Assembly: GCA_902561355.1 (NCBI GenBank)
Contig: CACEPG010000004.1
Span: 13,133-77,132, forward strand
Direction of reading: 5' to 3'
Source of the DNA: an uncultured Alphaproteobacteria bacterium
Lineage (GTDB): Bacteria > Pseudomonadota > Alphaproteobacteria > HIMB59 > GCA-002718135
DNA: 64,000 bases
Below are positions 8,110-13,135 of this stretch, piece after piece (position 1 is the first letter of the stretch; each line of letters starts with the position of its first letter). Made by a program: the position numbers and the translations under genes. Under the pieces are notes generated by a model. It was not told the origin of the DNA. It saw nothing but the letters and a program-made list of their open reading frames with translations, and did not search any database.

Positions 8110-8613
8110 TTAATTACAAGTACCTATTGAACCTAAGGAACATTTAGTACCATCTACCCAAATAGCATTAGATAAATTAGCTTCTTCAAATGTAGTACCT
8201 GCAATATTTGCTCCCAAAAGATTTGCTTCATATAAATTTGCACCCTTAAATGAAGAAGTAAATAAATTTGCACCTTCAAAATTAACTTTTGCTAAATTAG
8301 CATTTTCAAAATTAGCATTATTACAATTAGCACCCTGTAAATTAGCTGCATATAAATTAGAATTACTAAAATTAGAAAATATAAAATTGCCAACAGAAAG
8401 ATTAGCGTTATTAAGTTGAGATTTTTCAAGATTTGCTAAAGATAAATTGACTCCAGACATTTGAGCATTTGCCAGTCCAACTCCTTTTAAATCTAAATTT
8501 TCAACAAAATTACAATTTGTCCAATCCACTTCATTAGCTGGTTGATCATCACATCCTGAATAGGCTTTACTAGAGAACATTAAACTTAAGAATAAAAGGA
8601 TAATAAATTTCAT
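8110..8613 (-). CDS. Secreted pentapeptide-repeat protein
   Basis: 167 aa. Signal peptide MKFIILLFLSLMFSSKAYS, then tandem A(N/D)LxG-type pentapeptides (ANLQGANCNNANFENANLAKVNFEGANLF...). Confidence 0.85.
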   Translation of the reverse strand: MKFIILLFLSLMFSSKAYSGCDDQPANEVDWTNCNFVENLDLKGVGLANAQMSGVNLSLANLEKSQLNNANLSVGNFIFSNFSNSNLYAANLQGANCNNANFENANLAKVNFEGANLFTSSFKGANLYEANLLGANIAGTTFEEANLSNAIWVDGTKCSLGSIGTCN

Positions 8614-8654
8614 ACAAAGATAATTAAGTAAAATTTATGTTCAATTTAAGGCAA

Positions 8655-10526
8655 TTACTTTGACGTTAGTTTAAGTTCTATTCTTCTATTTTGTTGATAA
8701 TCCTCATTTGTTTCTCCATCACTAATAGGATAAAATTCACCATAACCAGCAGCAGCTAATCTTTCAGGTTCAAAACCTAACTCTAATAAAAGTTTTAAAA
8801 CTGAATTAGCTCTTGCCGTAGATAACTCCCAATTAGATGGGTATTGAGCTGTATTAATAGGTCTTTTATCGGTGTGCCCTTCTACTTGAATTATCCAATC
8901 AATTTCTTTTGGAATTTGAGAAGTTGTTTCTTTAAGAGTTATTCCAATTTCTTTTAATTTTTCTTTTCCTTCTATTTGTAAGACAGCAGATGCTGAGTCA
9001 AATAATAATTCAGACTCAAATATAAATCTATCTCCCACAATTTTTATGTCCTCTCTATCGCCAAGCAAAGATTGTAATTTACCAAAAAATTCAGATCTAT
9101 ATTTTTGTAATTCAAAAATTTTAGATGTAAGAGCTTTATTTAATCTTTCTCCCAAAACTTCTATTTCTAAATTTTTAGATGCTGTTTCAATTTCACTTGC
9201 TTCTAATGCTTTGTTTAATATCAAAATTTCATTTTTTAAATTATCTATTTCAGCTGATAATATTTCTACTTGCTGTAGTGTTTTTAATGAACGTAACTCC
9301 ATTTCTTGAATTTGCTGTATAGATATTTCTTTTTCTGATTCACTTAATTCTTGCAAAGATAAAATATTTTTTTCAAGCATAGTTATTTGTGATTCTTGAG
9401 CTAACTGAGTTTCTTGAGATATTGAGAGAATATCATTTAACTCAATGATTTTTCCTCTCAAATCAATAATTGTGTTATCTTTTTTAATTAGATTAGTATT
9501 TAATCTAGCTAGTTCTTGATTTTTAAAACGAATTGCTTCAAGTTGTTCTTGTAAAGAAGCATCCTTTAAACCTAAACTATCATTAATTTCTAATAAATCA
9601 TTCATTAAGTTCTGATATTGAGATATTTGACTTTGTAATTCTTCATCTCTTAAAGCGAGTTCTGTATTTGCATTTTGTAATAATTGAATCATATTTTTTG
9701 TTTCTTCTTGAGATAATATTAAATCATTATTTAATTTAATTAATGCGTCATTTTTTTTCTTTATAGCATTTAACTGCGCTGCTAAATCACCATCTTCTAT
9801 TCCTAAACTTTCATTAATTTTTATTAAATCATTATTTTTATTATTTAATTCAGTAATTCTTAATTCTAATTCATTTTCATTCTCAGTTAATTTGTCATTA
9901 AGCAAATTAAGTTCATTAATTTTTAAATTTAAATTATTTTCACTATCAGCTAATTTTTTATTTGTTATATCTAATTCATTATTTAAAGTTTTAAGCTGAG
10001 CAATCCGAGTAGCTAAAGCTTGATTTATTCTTTCTCCAAGACCTTCAGTTTCCAATGAAACATTATCAAAACCTTCATAAGTTTCTAATGCATTTGAAAC
10101 TATTCTTAATTCCTGCAATAAATTTGTAATTTGTTCAGATAAACCTATTATATTTTGCTCTTGTACGAATATTTCTGAACGTTTTTTTGCTATATCTGCT
10201 TGGAGTTCTTCACTTAAAAGTTCCTGAGTTTTAAGACTTTTACTTGTGATTCCAAGTTCCTCTTGAGTTTGTGTTAAATCAGTTAAAGCTTTTTCTTTTG
10301 AAGTTTTTTCAATTGATAAAATTTTGGAAAGCTCATTTATCTGATTACGCAAATCTACAAGAGCTTTGTCTCTGCCAGAAATAGCGTCACTTAAATAAAT
10401 TTGTGAAACAGTAAAAACCATTAAAATAAAAATTATTACAATTAATAATGTTGCTAAAACATCTACAAAACCTGGCCAGATATTAGTATTTTCTTGAAGT
10501 CTATTTCTTAATGACCTGGTTGTCAT
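8655..10526 (-). CDS. MotB/OmpA-family peptidoglycan-binding protein with N-terminal TM plug segment and a ~430-aa coiled-coil insertion
   Basis: 623 aa. N-terminal WPGFVDVLATLLIVIIFIL carries a TM helix with a MotB-type conserved Asp. Residues ~60-480 are heptad-rich (L/I/N/E/K). The C-terminus GHTDKRPI...SNWELSTARANSV...AAGYGEFYP...NRRIELKL is an OmpA/MotB domain. Confidence 0.8.
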   Translation of the reverse strand: MTTRSLRNRLQENTNIWPGFVDVLATLLIVIIFILMVFTVSQIYLSDAISGRDKALVDLRNQINELSKILSIEKTSKEKALTDLTQTQEELGITSKSLKTQELLSEELQADIAKKRSEIFVQEQNIIGLSEQITNLLQELRIVSNALETYEGFDNVSLETEGLGERINQALATRIAQLKTLNNELDITNKKLADSENNLNLKINELNLLNDKLTENENELELRITELNNKNNDLIKINESLGIEDGDLAAQLNAIKKKNDALIKLNNDLILSQEETKNMIQLLQNANTELALRDEELQSQISQYQNLMNDLLEINDSLGLKDASLQEQLEAIRFKNQELARLNTNLIKKDNTIIDLRGKIIELNDILSISQETQLAQESQITMLEKNILSLQELSESEKEISIQQIQEMELRSLKTLQQVEILSAEIDNLKNEILILNKALEASEIETASKNLEIEVLGERLNKALTSKIFELQKYRSEFFGKLQSLLGDREDIKIVGDRFIFESELLFDSASAVLQIEGKEKLKEIGITLKETTSQIPKEIDWIIQVEGHTDKRPINTAQYPSNWELSTARANSVLKLLLELGFEPERLAAAGYGEFYPISDGETNEDYQQNRRIELKLTSK

Positions 10527-10528
10527 TT

Positions 10529-11569
10529 TTATTTTTTATTCTTTGAAATAAGTTGCTTTATCCCCTTATCTAAGTTCTCAAATATTTTTTTAGTTTTTTT
10601 ATCAATTAATCCATTTTCATTAAGTTGATTAGTTAATTGGAGCATACTAGATTGAGTGTTAAGCTGTGTAGACAAGAAGTTGGATAATTTTTTATCAAGT
10701 TCAACAGAGTTAGAATTTATTTGTTTAAGGATTTCATTTAATTTTTCAAAATTAGAATTAAGTTGGTTTTGATTCTGTGAAGTTTCTTTTAAAGAAAACA
10801 CTATGTTGTCAAGATTTTCATAAATTTTTTGAATTGATTTATCTGTGGTGTTATCAGATTGTAAAATTTTTGAAAATTCTGGTGAAGAATTAAGATTTGC
10901 TATTTTTTCAAAGTATTGACTAAACTTATTCTGTGCTTGGCCTAAATTTATATCCATAAATCCTAATATTAATGATCCAGCTAATCCAAGTAATGAACTG
11001 CTGAATGCAATGCTCATTCCTTGCAGTGGCGCATTTAAACCATCTTTTAATGAATTAAAAAAACCTGCAACATTAGTATCGTCAATGCCTAATCCACTAA
11101 TCACATCTCCAACAGAACCTATTGTTTTTAATAAACCCCAAAAAGTTCCAAGAAGACCTAAAAATACTAATAAGCCTACTAAGTATCTTGAGGTTTCACG
11201 GATACTGGATAGGCTCATATCCGTATTTTCTATTAATCTATCAACCGACGAACTTTTAAAAACAAATCGACCATCTAATTCTTTAAGCTCTGATAATATA
11301 TTTTTTAAATTTCCTTTTGAATTAAGGAATGATTTTGGCGATTTATTAATATCAAAATTTATGAGTGCTATATAATCAGTATTTAATTCTGTTAACTTCA
11401 ATAAATTAAATACTATACCTATAAATAATGCTCCTATAATTATGATATTAATAAAAACATTTGATAAAAAAGCAGATTGCAAAACAGGGTAAAGCAAAAC
11501 AACAAAAATAAATATTAAAGCTAAAAATAATGATACTCTTAAAATATATTGATTTAAACTTTCCTGCAT
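10529..11569 (-). CDS. MotA/TolQ/ExbB-family proton-channel protein with a C-terminal coiled-coil tail
   Basis: 346 aa with a 4-TM, MotA-like topology. Channel signature LLGTFWGLLKTIG....MSIAFSSSLLGLAGSLILG. The last ~130 aa are predicted coiled coil. A 2-nt gap separates it from the MotB-like gene. Confidence 0.8.
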   Translation of the reverse strand: MQESLNQYILRVSLFLALIFIFVVLLYPVLQSAFLSNVFINIIIIGALFIGIVFNLLKLTELNTDYIALINFDINKSPKSFLNSKGNLKNILSELKELDGRFVFKSSSVDRLIENTDMSLSSIRETSRYLVGLLVFLGLLGTFWGLLKTIGSVGDVISGLGIDDTNVAGFFNSLKDGLNAPLQGMSIAFSSSLLGLAGSLILGFMDINLGQAQNKFSQYFEKIANLNSSPEFSKILQSDNTTDKSIQKIYENLDNIVFSLKETSQNQNQLNSNFEKLNEILKQINSNSVELDKKLSNFLSTQLNTQSSMLQLTNQLNENGLIDKKTKKIFENLDKGIKQLISKNKK

Positions 11570-11624: not shown

Positions 11625-12809
11625 TCAATTATAAATATAATTTCTTGTTAAAGGTAAATTTTGTATATTTTTTGCAATTTGAATCTGGAAAACTACATTA
11701 CCCATATTAACAAATGAATATTTACTTGCTAGTAAATAAAATTCCCACATTCGAAAAAAACGTTCATCAAACATTCTAATAATTTTATCCTTATTTTTAA
11801 TTACATTTTGATACCAATGCGTTAGTGTATGCGCATAGTGTAAGCGCAAAATTTCAATATCTGTGATATTAATATTTAATTTTTCACAGTCTTTAATAAT
11901 ATCAGATAAAGAAGGAATATAACCTCCAGGAAAAATATATTTTCTTATCCAAGGACTAGTTGCGGTGGGTATCCCTCTTTGTCCTATGGTATGTAATAAA
12001 AAAACTCCTTTATCATTTAAAATGTCATATGTTTTTGAAAAAAAAGTTCTAAAATATTTTACTCCAACATGCTCAAACATACCTACTGAAACTATACGAT
12101 CATAATTTTCTTTTTCATCTCTATAGTCTTGTAATTTAAAAGTTACTTTTTCTGACAATCCTTCTTCTTGAGCTCTTTTTGAAGCTGTAGCTAATTGATT
12201 TTCTGATAACGTAATTCCTTTAACATATGCTCCAGTTTGCTTAGCAATTTCTATTGCCATACCGCCCCAACCACATCCAATATCTAATACTTTCATGTTT
12301 TCAGAAATTTGAAGCTTATTTATTATGTGATTTTTTTTATCAATTTGAGCCCGATCTAATCCGATATTTGCATTATGATAATAACCACATGAATACTGCA
12401 TATCTTTATCTAAAAATAAACGGTATAAATCTTCTTTCAAATCATAATGGTGTGCTACATTCTTTTTTGAATTTACAAATTCATTAATTTGCTGAAATGT
12501 TTTGAAATATCCAGAAAATTTTTCATAAAGTTTAAAATATTTATTATGCTTTATAAAATCATCGTATGCTGAGGTTACTAAATCTACTAACTGCTCAATA
12601 GTTCCTTCTTCAATTACTAATTCTTCATTCATATAGCCCTCACCAAAATGAAGGCTGGGATTTCTAAACAATTTTTTTTCTATTGATTTATTTTTAAGTT
12701 TTACTCTGACTAATGGATTACCTGATCCATATGTAAACTTTGTATTATTGGAATCAATGAATTCAAGAGTTCCATTAAATTTAATTTTATTTAGAACTGA
12801 GAAAAGCAT
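11625..12809 (-). CDS. cfa: Cyclopropane-fatty-acyl-phospholipid synthase family SAM-dependent methyltransferase
   Basis: 394 aa. Reads DLSNEFYRLFLD-like (DLKEDLYRLFLDKDMQYSCGYY), the SAM motif VLDIGCGWGGMA, and VSVGMFEHVG. Confidence 0.85.
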   Translation of the reverse strand: MLFSVLNKIKFNGTLEFIDSNNTKFTYGSGNPLVRVKLKNKSIEKKLFRNPSLHFGEGYMNEELVIEEGTIEQLVDLVTSAYDDFIKHNKYFKLYEKFSGYFKTFQQINEFVNSKKNVAHHYDLKEDLYRLFLDKDMQYSCGYYHNANIGLDRAQIDKKNHIINKLQISENMKVLDIGCGWGGMAIEIAKQTGAYVKGITLSENQLATASKRAQEEGLSEKVTFKLQDYRDEKENYDRIVSVGMFEHVGVKYFRTFFSKTYDILNDKGVFLLHTIGQRGIPTATSPWIRKYIFPGGYIPSLSDIIKDCEKLNINITDIEILRLHYAHTLTHWYQNVIKNKDKIIRMFDERFFRMWEFYLLASKYSFVNMGNVVFQIQIAKNIQNLPLTRNYIYN

Positions 12810-12910: not shown

Positions 12911-13135
12911 CTAAGCTGCTATGCGACGATTTTTTTGAGCTTCTTTTACTTTTTTGAGCTCTTTTTCATCAATATAAGCTACATTACAATGATCGTGACA
13001 ATATGGTTTTCCTGGAACTGTGTCTAAATCACAAAAATGAAAATCTTTTTCTTGAGGATCACCAATTGGCCATTGACAACTTGAAAAGGTATGGGTTACC
13101 TTGTTTTGTTTAAAGTAATTCTTAATAATTGACAT
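12911..13135 (-). CDS. GcrA-like protein consisting of the C-terminal (sigma-70-interacting) domain only
   Basis: 74 aa. CQWPIGDPQEKDFHFCDLDTVPGKPYCHDHCNVAY matches the conserved GcrA C-terminal block (C-x-WP-x-GDP...F-x-FC...PYC..H...AY). No N-terminal DNA-binding domain is present. Confidence 0.7.
   Translation of the reverse strand: MSIIKNYFKQNKVTHTFSSCQWPIGDPQEKDFHFCDLDTVPGKPYCHDHCNVAYIDEKELKKVKEAQKNRRIAA

Follow-up and report, generated by a model that had tools for sequence, protein, structure and literature searches.

A stator-type gene pair of the PRK09039 family with a jointed, length-variable stalk in a SAR11 genome

A stretch of 64,000 nucleotides from an uncultured SAR11 alphaproteobacterium of the order HIMB59 (positions 13,133 to 77,132 of contig CACEPG010000004.1; hereafter the window) contains a compact group of three open reading frames (ORFs) on the minus strand. 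The first, A (10529..11569), encodes a channel protein of 346 residues akin to MotA, ExbB and ZorA. The second, B (8655..10526), encodes a MotB-like protein of 623 residues, and the third, C (8110..8613), an exported, possibly lipidated pentapeptide-repeat protein of 167 residues. A and B are 2 nt apart, B and C 41 nt. This layout, coordinates and gaps included, had been put forward in an original prediction made from the DNA letters, and is borne out by the ORFs. That the A-B pair belongs to the PRK09039 family and has a stator-type architecture is very likely. The branch of the 5:2 motor superfamily of which the pair is a member is catalogued but has no described function. The source genome is 68% complete.

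The AlphaFold2 (AF2) model of A was computed from an alignment of 81 sequences and has a predicted local distance difference test score (pLDDT) of 80. It consists of four transmembrane (TM) helices (residues 6–25, 38–70, 106–159 and 167–226) and a C-terminal tail of about 140 residues (207–346, 10532..10951 on the minus strand, cytoplasmic by homology), which is helical between residues 241 and 345 (241–318 and 324–345). The helices 167–226, 241–318 and 324–345 have a pLDDT of about 52–76. The best 50 fold matches found with Foldseek in the Protein Data Bank (PDB) are all A subunits of 5:2 motors (ExbB, ZorA, TolQ, MotA and PomA), including ExbB 5sv0 and ZorA 8vvn and 8qyd, with probabilities of ~1.0, E-values of ~1e-3 and TMt up to 0.59. 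The four-TM MotA/ExbB-type protein with a C-terminal tail of the original prediction is thus recovered in the model. Two signatures are invariant or nearly so across the 81 sequences: LGLLGTFWGLL in TM3 (residues 137–147, 11129..11161, minus strand) and GM..AFSSSL.GL.GSL.LGF in TM4, which reads GMSIAFSSSLLGLAGSLILGF in the window protein (residues 184–204, 10958..11020, minus strand). In TM4, Gly184, Met185, Phe189, Ser192, Gly195, Leu196, Gly198 and Gly203 are invariant.

With the Pfam MotA_ExbB model (PF01618), the window A protein scores 18.0 bits for a cut-off of 22.9, and the orthologue from a second SAR11 family (f2) scores 26.3 bits, above the cut-off. The PADLOC profiles ZorA1 and ZorA3 match A at 3e-13 (47.5 bits), with local matches only. 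When the A-family profile was run against PDB sequences, it returned solely generic coiled-coil matches, to the tail. In the A alignment, the tails outside SAR11 close with a conserved EIKLLARTIAA motif, which the SAR11 proteins do not have; the f2 protein measures only about 288 residues. The extended motif R-x-E-I-K-L-L-A-R-T-I-A-A, at about alignment columns 380–400 of the non-SAR11 proteins, could be a partner-binding site.

B consists of one TM helix, a helical stalk of about 450 residues and an OmpA domain. A basic N-terminus, with three arginines within residues 1–10, precedes the TM motif WPGFVDVLATLL, which contains Asp22. Asp22 (codon 10461-10463) is the candidate proton-binding residue of the TM helix (residues 17–38, 10413..10478, minus strand); Trp17, Pro18, Gly19, Val21 and Asp22 are at least 90% conserved among 67 homologues. 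The three arginines ahead of the helix indicate an N-in topology. As this single N-in helix is combined with a C-terminal OmpA domain, the intervening stalk (residues 39–488, 9063..10412, minus strand) must be periplasmic; a cytoplasmic coil, considered in the original prediction, does not fit its position between the two. The OmpA/MotB-type peptidoglycan-binding domain (residues 494–621, 8664..9047, minus strand) is recognized by the Pfam OmpA model over residues 508–614 (1.8e-16) and is modelled with a pLDDT above 90. Its closest folds are the periplasmic domains of MotS, Helicobacter pylori MotB and PomB (9ljl, 3s0h, 3wpw), with ZorB lower in the list. The MotB-like character that had been proposed for B, with its TM aspartate and OmpA domain, is therefore well founded. 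The full-length protein scores 353.2 bits with NCBIfam NF006543 (PRK09039.1-2, 'peptidoglycan-binding protein'; curated cut-off 305), and PADLOC ZorB3 matches it at 1.5e-21. In one member of the genus (G278:C25:9045-9782), the N-terminal half of B is interrupted by two in-frame TGA codons, reflecting either a broken copy or an assembly error.

The pair is not the orphan that it had been taken for. PRK09039 is a catalogued family, 127 of 201 genomes sampled evenly over the class have a protein above the NF006543 cut-off, and A lies upstream of B in every untruncated locus examined. In the 12 best class loci, which come from different families, A is directly upstream of B without exception, at about 30% full-length identity to the window A protein. 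Scanning named genomes with the A alignment gave at least 596 loci; among the 80 that were kept, 74 have B right after A and the rest are truncated by contig ends, the two genes being separated mostly by -4 to +25 nt. Searched against 1.84 billion proteins, a profile built from 81 A sequences retrieved 1,114 representative clusters (50% identity) with E ≤ 1e-30. Within the order of the window, the pair is present in 129 of 151 genomes, and in 21 of the 22 of high quality. It is kept in streamlined genomes of 1.2–1.6 Mb, which argues for a core role.

The window pair shares its gene order and sequence motifs with PRK09039-type pairs across the class. It departs from them in that a typical B protein has 330–400 residues, the window stalk being about 270 residues longer, and in that the SAR11 loci do without the gene X found upstream elsewhere and without the C-terminal motif of A, while a pentapeptide gene is added. 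Some Alphaproteobacteria (G155, G006) carry two or three strong PRK09039-type B genes, so that the family has paralogues, and one locus (L027) has a second B copy of 627 residues about 470 nt downstream of the first. Some A-family records are labelled delta-, beta- or gammaproteobacterial. Two others, labelled Patescibacteria and Mycobacteriaceae (L023 and L029), display typical alphaproteobacterial X-A-B loci and are probably mis-binned contigs.

In the AF2 model of B (pLDDT 78), the TM helix continues directly into the first stalk helix (residues 17–151), which is followed by helices 163–240, 248–318, 324–444 and 452–488. The low-confidence breaks at residues 152–162, 241–247, 319–323 and 445–451 delimit four hinges. 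The segment from residue 40 to residue 480 is free of proline. Helices 2 and 3, each with an SLG-x-x-D hinge, form a tandem duplication (residues 163–323, 9558..10040, minus strand) of a 77-residue unit, with an offset of exactly 77 residues, or 11 heptads; self-alignment at this offset scores 102, versus 44 ± 7 in shuffled sequences. Both hotspots of length change described below lie within the duplication.

Exact lengths of B were taken from 50 loci of the order. They amount to 427, 456, 469, 476, 479, 490, 491, 497, 504, 532, 588 (22 loci), 595, 616, 623, 630, 633, 637, 644, 651, 658 and 707 residues. Multiples of seven make up 17 of the 21 distinct lengths, and some of the exceptions may be start-codon miscalls. 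The range from 588 to 707 residues is covered within one genus. Relative to the window protein, the insertions and deletions (indels) in the genus and its sister genus g201 measure 7, 14, 21, 28, 42, 56 or 84 residues, with no other sizes. They fall at two hotspots, near residues 201–210 (helix 2) and 264–282 (helix 3), although their placement between the two helices is uncertain, as these are repeats of each other. For about 13 distinct events, the chance that all are multiples of seven is ~1e-11, if the events are independent and unbiased. As length differences in B are almost all whole heptads, the stalk is a genuine in-register coiled coil.

Pure DNA slippage does not account for the seven-residue steps. 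A degenerate tandem repeat of 63 nt (21 codons, 2.4 copies, 9832-9981) within the stalk region overlies the first hotspot only. It can explain steps of 21, 42 and 84 residues there, but slippage fails for the steps of 7, 14 and 28 residues at the second hotspot, in helix 3. Unequal recombination at the repeat contributes to the length change. Since the indels are uncompensated, with +84 residues in helix 2 alone or +7 in helix 3 alone, helices 2 and 3 are unlikely to pack as a tight antiparallel hairpin.

With a helix rise of about 0.15 nm per residue, the ~420 helical residues of B would add up to some 60 nm, more than a straight stalk could span perpendicularly. The stalk is therefore more probably jointed or set obliquely than a straight perpendicular rod. 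The original prediction had also judged the coil too long to cross the periplasm straight, and this part stands; the single uninterrupted coil that it assumed is replaced by five helices and four hinges. That the stalk might act as a ruler of the periplasm was examined with the ORF at the position of TolA in the same genomes. The latter is near-constant at 333–390 residues (standard deviation 12), while B varies by 280 residues, from 427 to 707 (standard deviation 64); the two lengths correlate with r = 0.54 and a slope of 0.10, among relatives that are not independent. The ruler idea was rejected on these grounds, and the stalk length is not tied to this other periplasm-spanning protein. A jointed stalk of variable length is more likely to be a flexible or oblique tether than a ruler of fixed length.

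Ion-driven 5:2 motors power flagella, TonB-dependent uptake, envelope maintenance by Tol-Pal, gliding, and Zorya defence. The genome of the window has only one other gene of the MotA_ExbB type, TolQ (263 bits), which stands on another contig (C6) in a canonical cluster with TolR, an ORF in the position of TolA, TolB, Pal and CpoB. The ORF in the TolA position (L006:3365-4429) encodes 354 residues rich in Lys, Asn and Glu, has no NCBIfam match at 1e-5, and is 333–390 residues long across the order. Aligned with hhalign, the A family and this TolQ share 33 columns, covering the TM3 signature only (FIGLFGTVWGIM in TolQ). Neither A nor B matches a TolQ or TolR model of NCBIfam, and with the separate Tol-Pal cluster a TolQR identity was rejected. 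An ExbBD identity was also set aside: TonB_C was not found in the 68%-complete genome, and B carries an OmpA domain and is not of the ExbD type. Likewise, no flagellar or TonB genes were detected in this genome, as the original prediction had noted for the window alone; its proposal of what looks like an ion-driven, stator-type unit coupled to neither flagellum, Tol-Pal nor TonB is upheld by these genome searches and by the location of the Tol cluster.

The solved ExbB-ExbD and TolQ-TolR complexes (5SV0, 6TYI, 8ODT, 9DDM) are non-flagellar motors that energize the envelope with the proton motive force (PMF). They resemble the window pair in the fold of the A subunit, the top Foldseek match being 5sv0 with a TMt of 0.56–0.59. 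However, the window A protein has four TM helices, not three, plus the tail; ExbD and TolR have a small periplasmic domain where the window B protein has a stalk and an OmpA domain; and no partner gene of the TonB or TolA type accompanies the window pair. MotAB, PomAB and MotPS share with it a four-TM A subunit and a B subunit with a TM aspartate and a MotB-type OmpA domain, but have a short plug and linker in place of the coiled-coil stalk of 150–530 residues of PRK09039-type pairs. A flagellar stator was rejected, since FliG_C was found neither in the window's own genome (68% complete) nor in any of 28 genomes of the family that are at least 85% complete. Among NCBIfam models, the best flagellar match is MotD with 110.7 bits for a cut-off of 283, and no MotA model matched A. 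In the accessible part of a paper on the evolution of MotAB, non-flagellar homologues are grouped as 'GIT', with Zorya excluded (PMC12505986); that part contains no description of the PRK09039-type pair.

Taken together, the locus is interpreted, with a probability of roughly 0.6, as the form taken in SAR11 by a non-flagellar stator-type module that the Alphaproteobacteria have conserved by vertical inheritance. PRK09039 is catalogued by name, without a described function; new here are the anatomy of the stalk, with its hinges and its duplication, the lack of compensation between indels, the comparison with TolA, the precise occurrence of the pentapeptide gene, and the gene context in f2. Homology to solved 5:2 motors suggests an inner-membrane complex in which a B dimer is ringed by five A subunits. 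The passage of protons at Asp22 would drive A to rotate or step against B, which would be fixed to the wall by its dimeric stalk and OmpA domains, and the cytoplasmic tail of A would be the moving output. By analogy with these motors, the pair is probably ion-driven.

Upstream of A, on the same strand, lies a methyltransferase gene resembling cyclopropane-fatty-acyl-phospholipid synthase (CMAS; 11625-12809, minus strand; Pfam CMAS 298 bits), and the locus is flanked downstream by an EamA transporter gene (Pfam). The CMAS-like protein matches PADLOC 'mad2' at 6.5e-26, which most likely reflects generic similarity between S-adenosylmethionine-dependent methyltransferases and does not mark a defence gene. 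No terminator was found between CMAS, A, B and C, and promoter-like sites in the cluster are no commoner than in shuffled sequence. In loci outside SAR11, the genes that recur beside the pair have housekeeping functions (efp, a suhB-like phosphatase, thiE and an MsbA-like ABC transporter), the transporter lying downstream of the pair in 24 loci. A further gene, termed X, sits immediately upstream of A in 36 of 81 loci; its product is secreted, varies in length and carries an OmpA-like domain at the C-terminus. X precedes A in none of the SAR11 loci examined; elsewhere in the 68%-complete genome, the remaining OmpA ORF (C57) scores below Pal with the X profile and is not X-like. In f2, A overlaps B by 4 nt, and the same-strand genes ahead of the pair encode MurJ and a secreted PagL-like protein of 159 residues, of the lipid A 3-O-deacylase family (L140:1484-1963, also L143 and L147).

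The product of C was assigned with Pfam PF00805 (75.5 bits, cut-off 20.2) and has a signal peptide, in agreement with the exported pentapeptide-repeat protein of the original prediction, to which possible lipidation is added as a correction. The signal peptide closes with a lipobox-like Y-S-G-C (F/Y-A/S-A/G-C in five orthologues). The precursor has five cysteines, and the protein may be a lipoprotein with two disulfides, a reading that fits the sequence but is unproven. A DNA mimic of the Qnr/MfpA type was rejected, with NCBIfam scores of 25–36 bits versus cut-offs of 240–500 and a signal peptide where a cytoplasmic location would be required.

The pentapeptide gene could encode a third component of the machine in this SAR11 clade, its β-helix being the periplasmic or outer-membrane partner contacted by the long stalk, in replacement of X. 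It is a single-copy gene, always directly after B (41–45 nt downstream, same strand, no terminator between), in 59 of 69 genomes of g1, the one genome of g199 and three of the four of g201; the ten g1 genomes without it are the same ten that are without B, all incomplete assemblies. Its product is better conserved (68–90% identity) than A or B, it is confined to genera with the longest stalks (B of at least 588 residues), and X is missing in all SAR11 loci. However, three sister genera and all 71 f2 genomes examined keep A and B without the pentapeptide gene. The arrangement in the sister genera is CMAS-A-B-EamA, and the gene therefore seems to have been inserted once, between B and EamA. Gene order in SAR11 is also generally rigid, which makes adjacency weak evidence, and the link with stalk length amounts to one phylogenetic event. 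Such a three-part machine is considered unlikely. Found after B in just three genera, all from one SAR11 family, the gene does not belong to the conserved module. Its product is most simply seen as a periplasmic, probably lipid-anchored addition in these genera, at most accessory, its partnership with A and B being unproven.

The pair could also be a passive structural tether that has lost ion conduction, with A only holding B in the membrane and the stalk, together with the OmpA domain, fastening the inner membrane to the wall. A slack tether would agree with a stalk length that is polymorphic and decoupled from that of TolA, and the window A protein falls under its Pfam cut-off; SAR11 A tails, moreover, are shortened and lack the C-terminal motif kept elsewhere. 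Yet Asp22 and the polar TM3 and TM4 signatures are near-invariant across very divergent members, which is hard to explain without a channel function, and a tether would not need the five-fold channel subunit that is retained in streamlined genomes. A purely structural role is therefore left with an outside chance.

ZorAB (8QYD, 8VVN) has been proven to be a 5:2 motor that is driven by protons, binds peptidoglycan and extends a tail of about 70 nm into the cytoplasm (PMC11946911). It shares with the window pair a MotA-like subunit with a C-terminal helical tail, and a MotB-like subunit with a conserved TM aspartate and a peptidoglycan-binding domain, dimeric in ZorB. A minimal Zorya-like phage sensor, in which the wall-anchored motor would sense envelope damage and signal via the A tail, would accord with the PADLOC matches, those to ZorA being the best profile matches of A, and with the presence of ZorA among its top folds. 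But the tail of the window A protein has only about 140 residues compared with ~70 nm in ZorA, and the long coiled coil belongs to B, in the periplasm, instead of to A, in the cytoplasm. No Zor protein was found with PADLOC among ten neighbours (which include CMAS and EamA), ZorC, D, E, F and G being absent from them, and NCBIfam antiphage_ZorA_2 scores 17.1 bits for a cut-off of 100. The pair sits in housekeeping synteny and not in a defence island, is near-universal, and is inherited with the order and the class. Membership of the Zorya system was rejected and the phage sensor is highly improbable; the likeness to Zorya pointed out in the original prediction holds for the motor core and stops short of effector genes, tail length and gene context.

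A pair described in non-flagellated Komagataeibacter hansenii may be related. Adjacent genes there encode a 'MotA' of 348 residues with four TM helices and a 'MotB' of 321 residues with an OmpA domain (Jacek et al. 2019, PMC6570709; PMC6315621). When they were overexpressed, cells became elongated and formed chains and colony spreading rose about three-fold, and fusions to green fluorescent protein were polar; the MotB protein is 46–48% identical to proteins of Rhizobium, Rhodospirillum and Magnetospirillum (PMC6570709). Size, topology, adjacency and this identity to proteins of distant Alphaproteobacteria fit a PRK09039-type pair, although with a short stalk and with membership unconfirmed by sequence: a search with the Asaia member returned Acetobacteraceae homologues named 'flagellar motor protein MotA' and no named Komagataeibacter record. 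A stator for an unrecognized surface-movement apparatus, as suggested for Komagataeibacter, is scarcely credible in SAR11: the spreading phenotype and the nearness of the B C-terminal domain to flagellar MotS, MotB and PomB speak for it, but spreading of chained cells is explained equally well by a division defect, SAR11 cells are planktonic, FliG is missing from all 28 family genomes, and the genome has no gliding-type MotA_ExbB paralogue.

For the stator-type module, an envelope or division-associated role, PMF-dependent in the manner of Tol-Pal and distinct from motility or phage defence, is favoured only tentatively, the odds being somewhat against it. It is favoured because of the housekeeping and envelope-flavoured neighbours, the retention in streamlined genomes and, if they apply, the Komagataeibacter phenotypes. 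The envelope flavour comes from X upstream of A, from the MsbA-like transporter, from MurJ and the PagL-like protein in f2, and from CMAS in the window.

Several points weigh against this interpretation of the locus. Caulobacter vibrioides gave no match in the class control search, and the module is thus not universal in the class. The literature search yielded no paper or experiment on a verified member of the PRK09039 pair, and the K. hansenii data, which come from overexpression only, concern a pair that has not been linked to the family by sequence. The window A protein remains under the Pfam cut-off (18 versus 22.9 bits), and its Foldseek E-values are only ~1e-3. No conserved cytoplasmic partner was found for the A tail. 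Stoichiometry, ion flow and rotation are all carried over by analogy from other motors, and AF2 models of monomers cannot tell a parallel stalk dimer from a fold-back. Finally, most neighbours are generic housekeeping genes (efp, suhB-like), and the envelope argument from gene context is accordingly weak.

Extended further, the interpretation would make the pair a fourth class of housekeeping, PMF-driven envelope motor beside the flagellar, Ton and Tol systems, and part of the core of the Alphaproteobacteria, among them the most abundant bacteria of the ocean. Energy of the inner membrane would be coupled to the wall by a jointed coiled-coil stalk, whose heptad-quantized, strain-polymorphic length would tune reach or geometry, with the pentapeptide lipoprotein as a partner in some SAR11 genera. 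This extended proposal is speculative and has rather poor odds.

The stator-type module would represent a further class of 5:2 motor, without known output, that is common to most Alphaproteobacteria and kept in the extremely streamlined genomes of SAR11. Such conservation suggests an important, unrecognized use of the PMF in the cell envelope. The labels of flagellar MotA and MotB given to members in databases mislead the prediction of motility in non-motile bacteria. The series of SAR11 stalks from 427 to 707 residues, in steps of seven, could serve as a natural test set for the reach of a motor to the wall.

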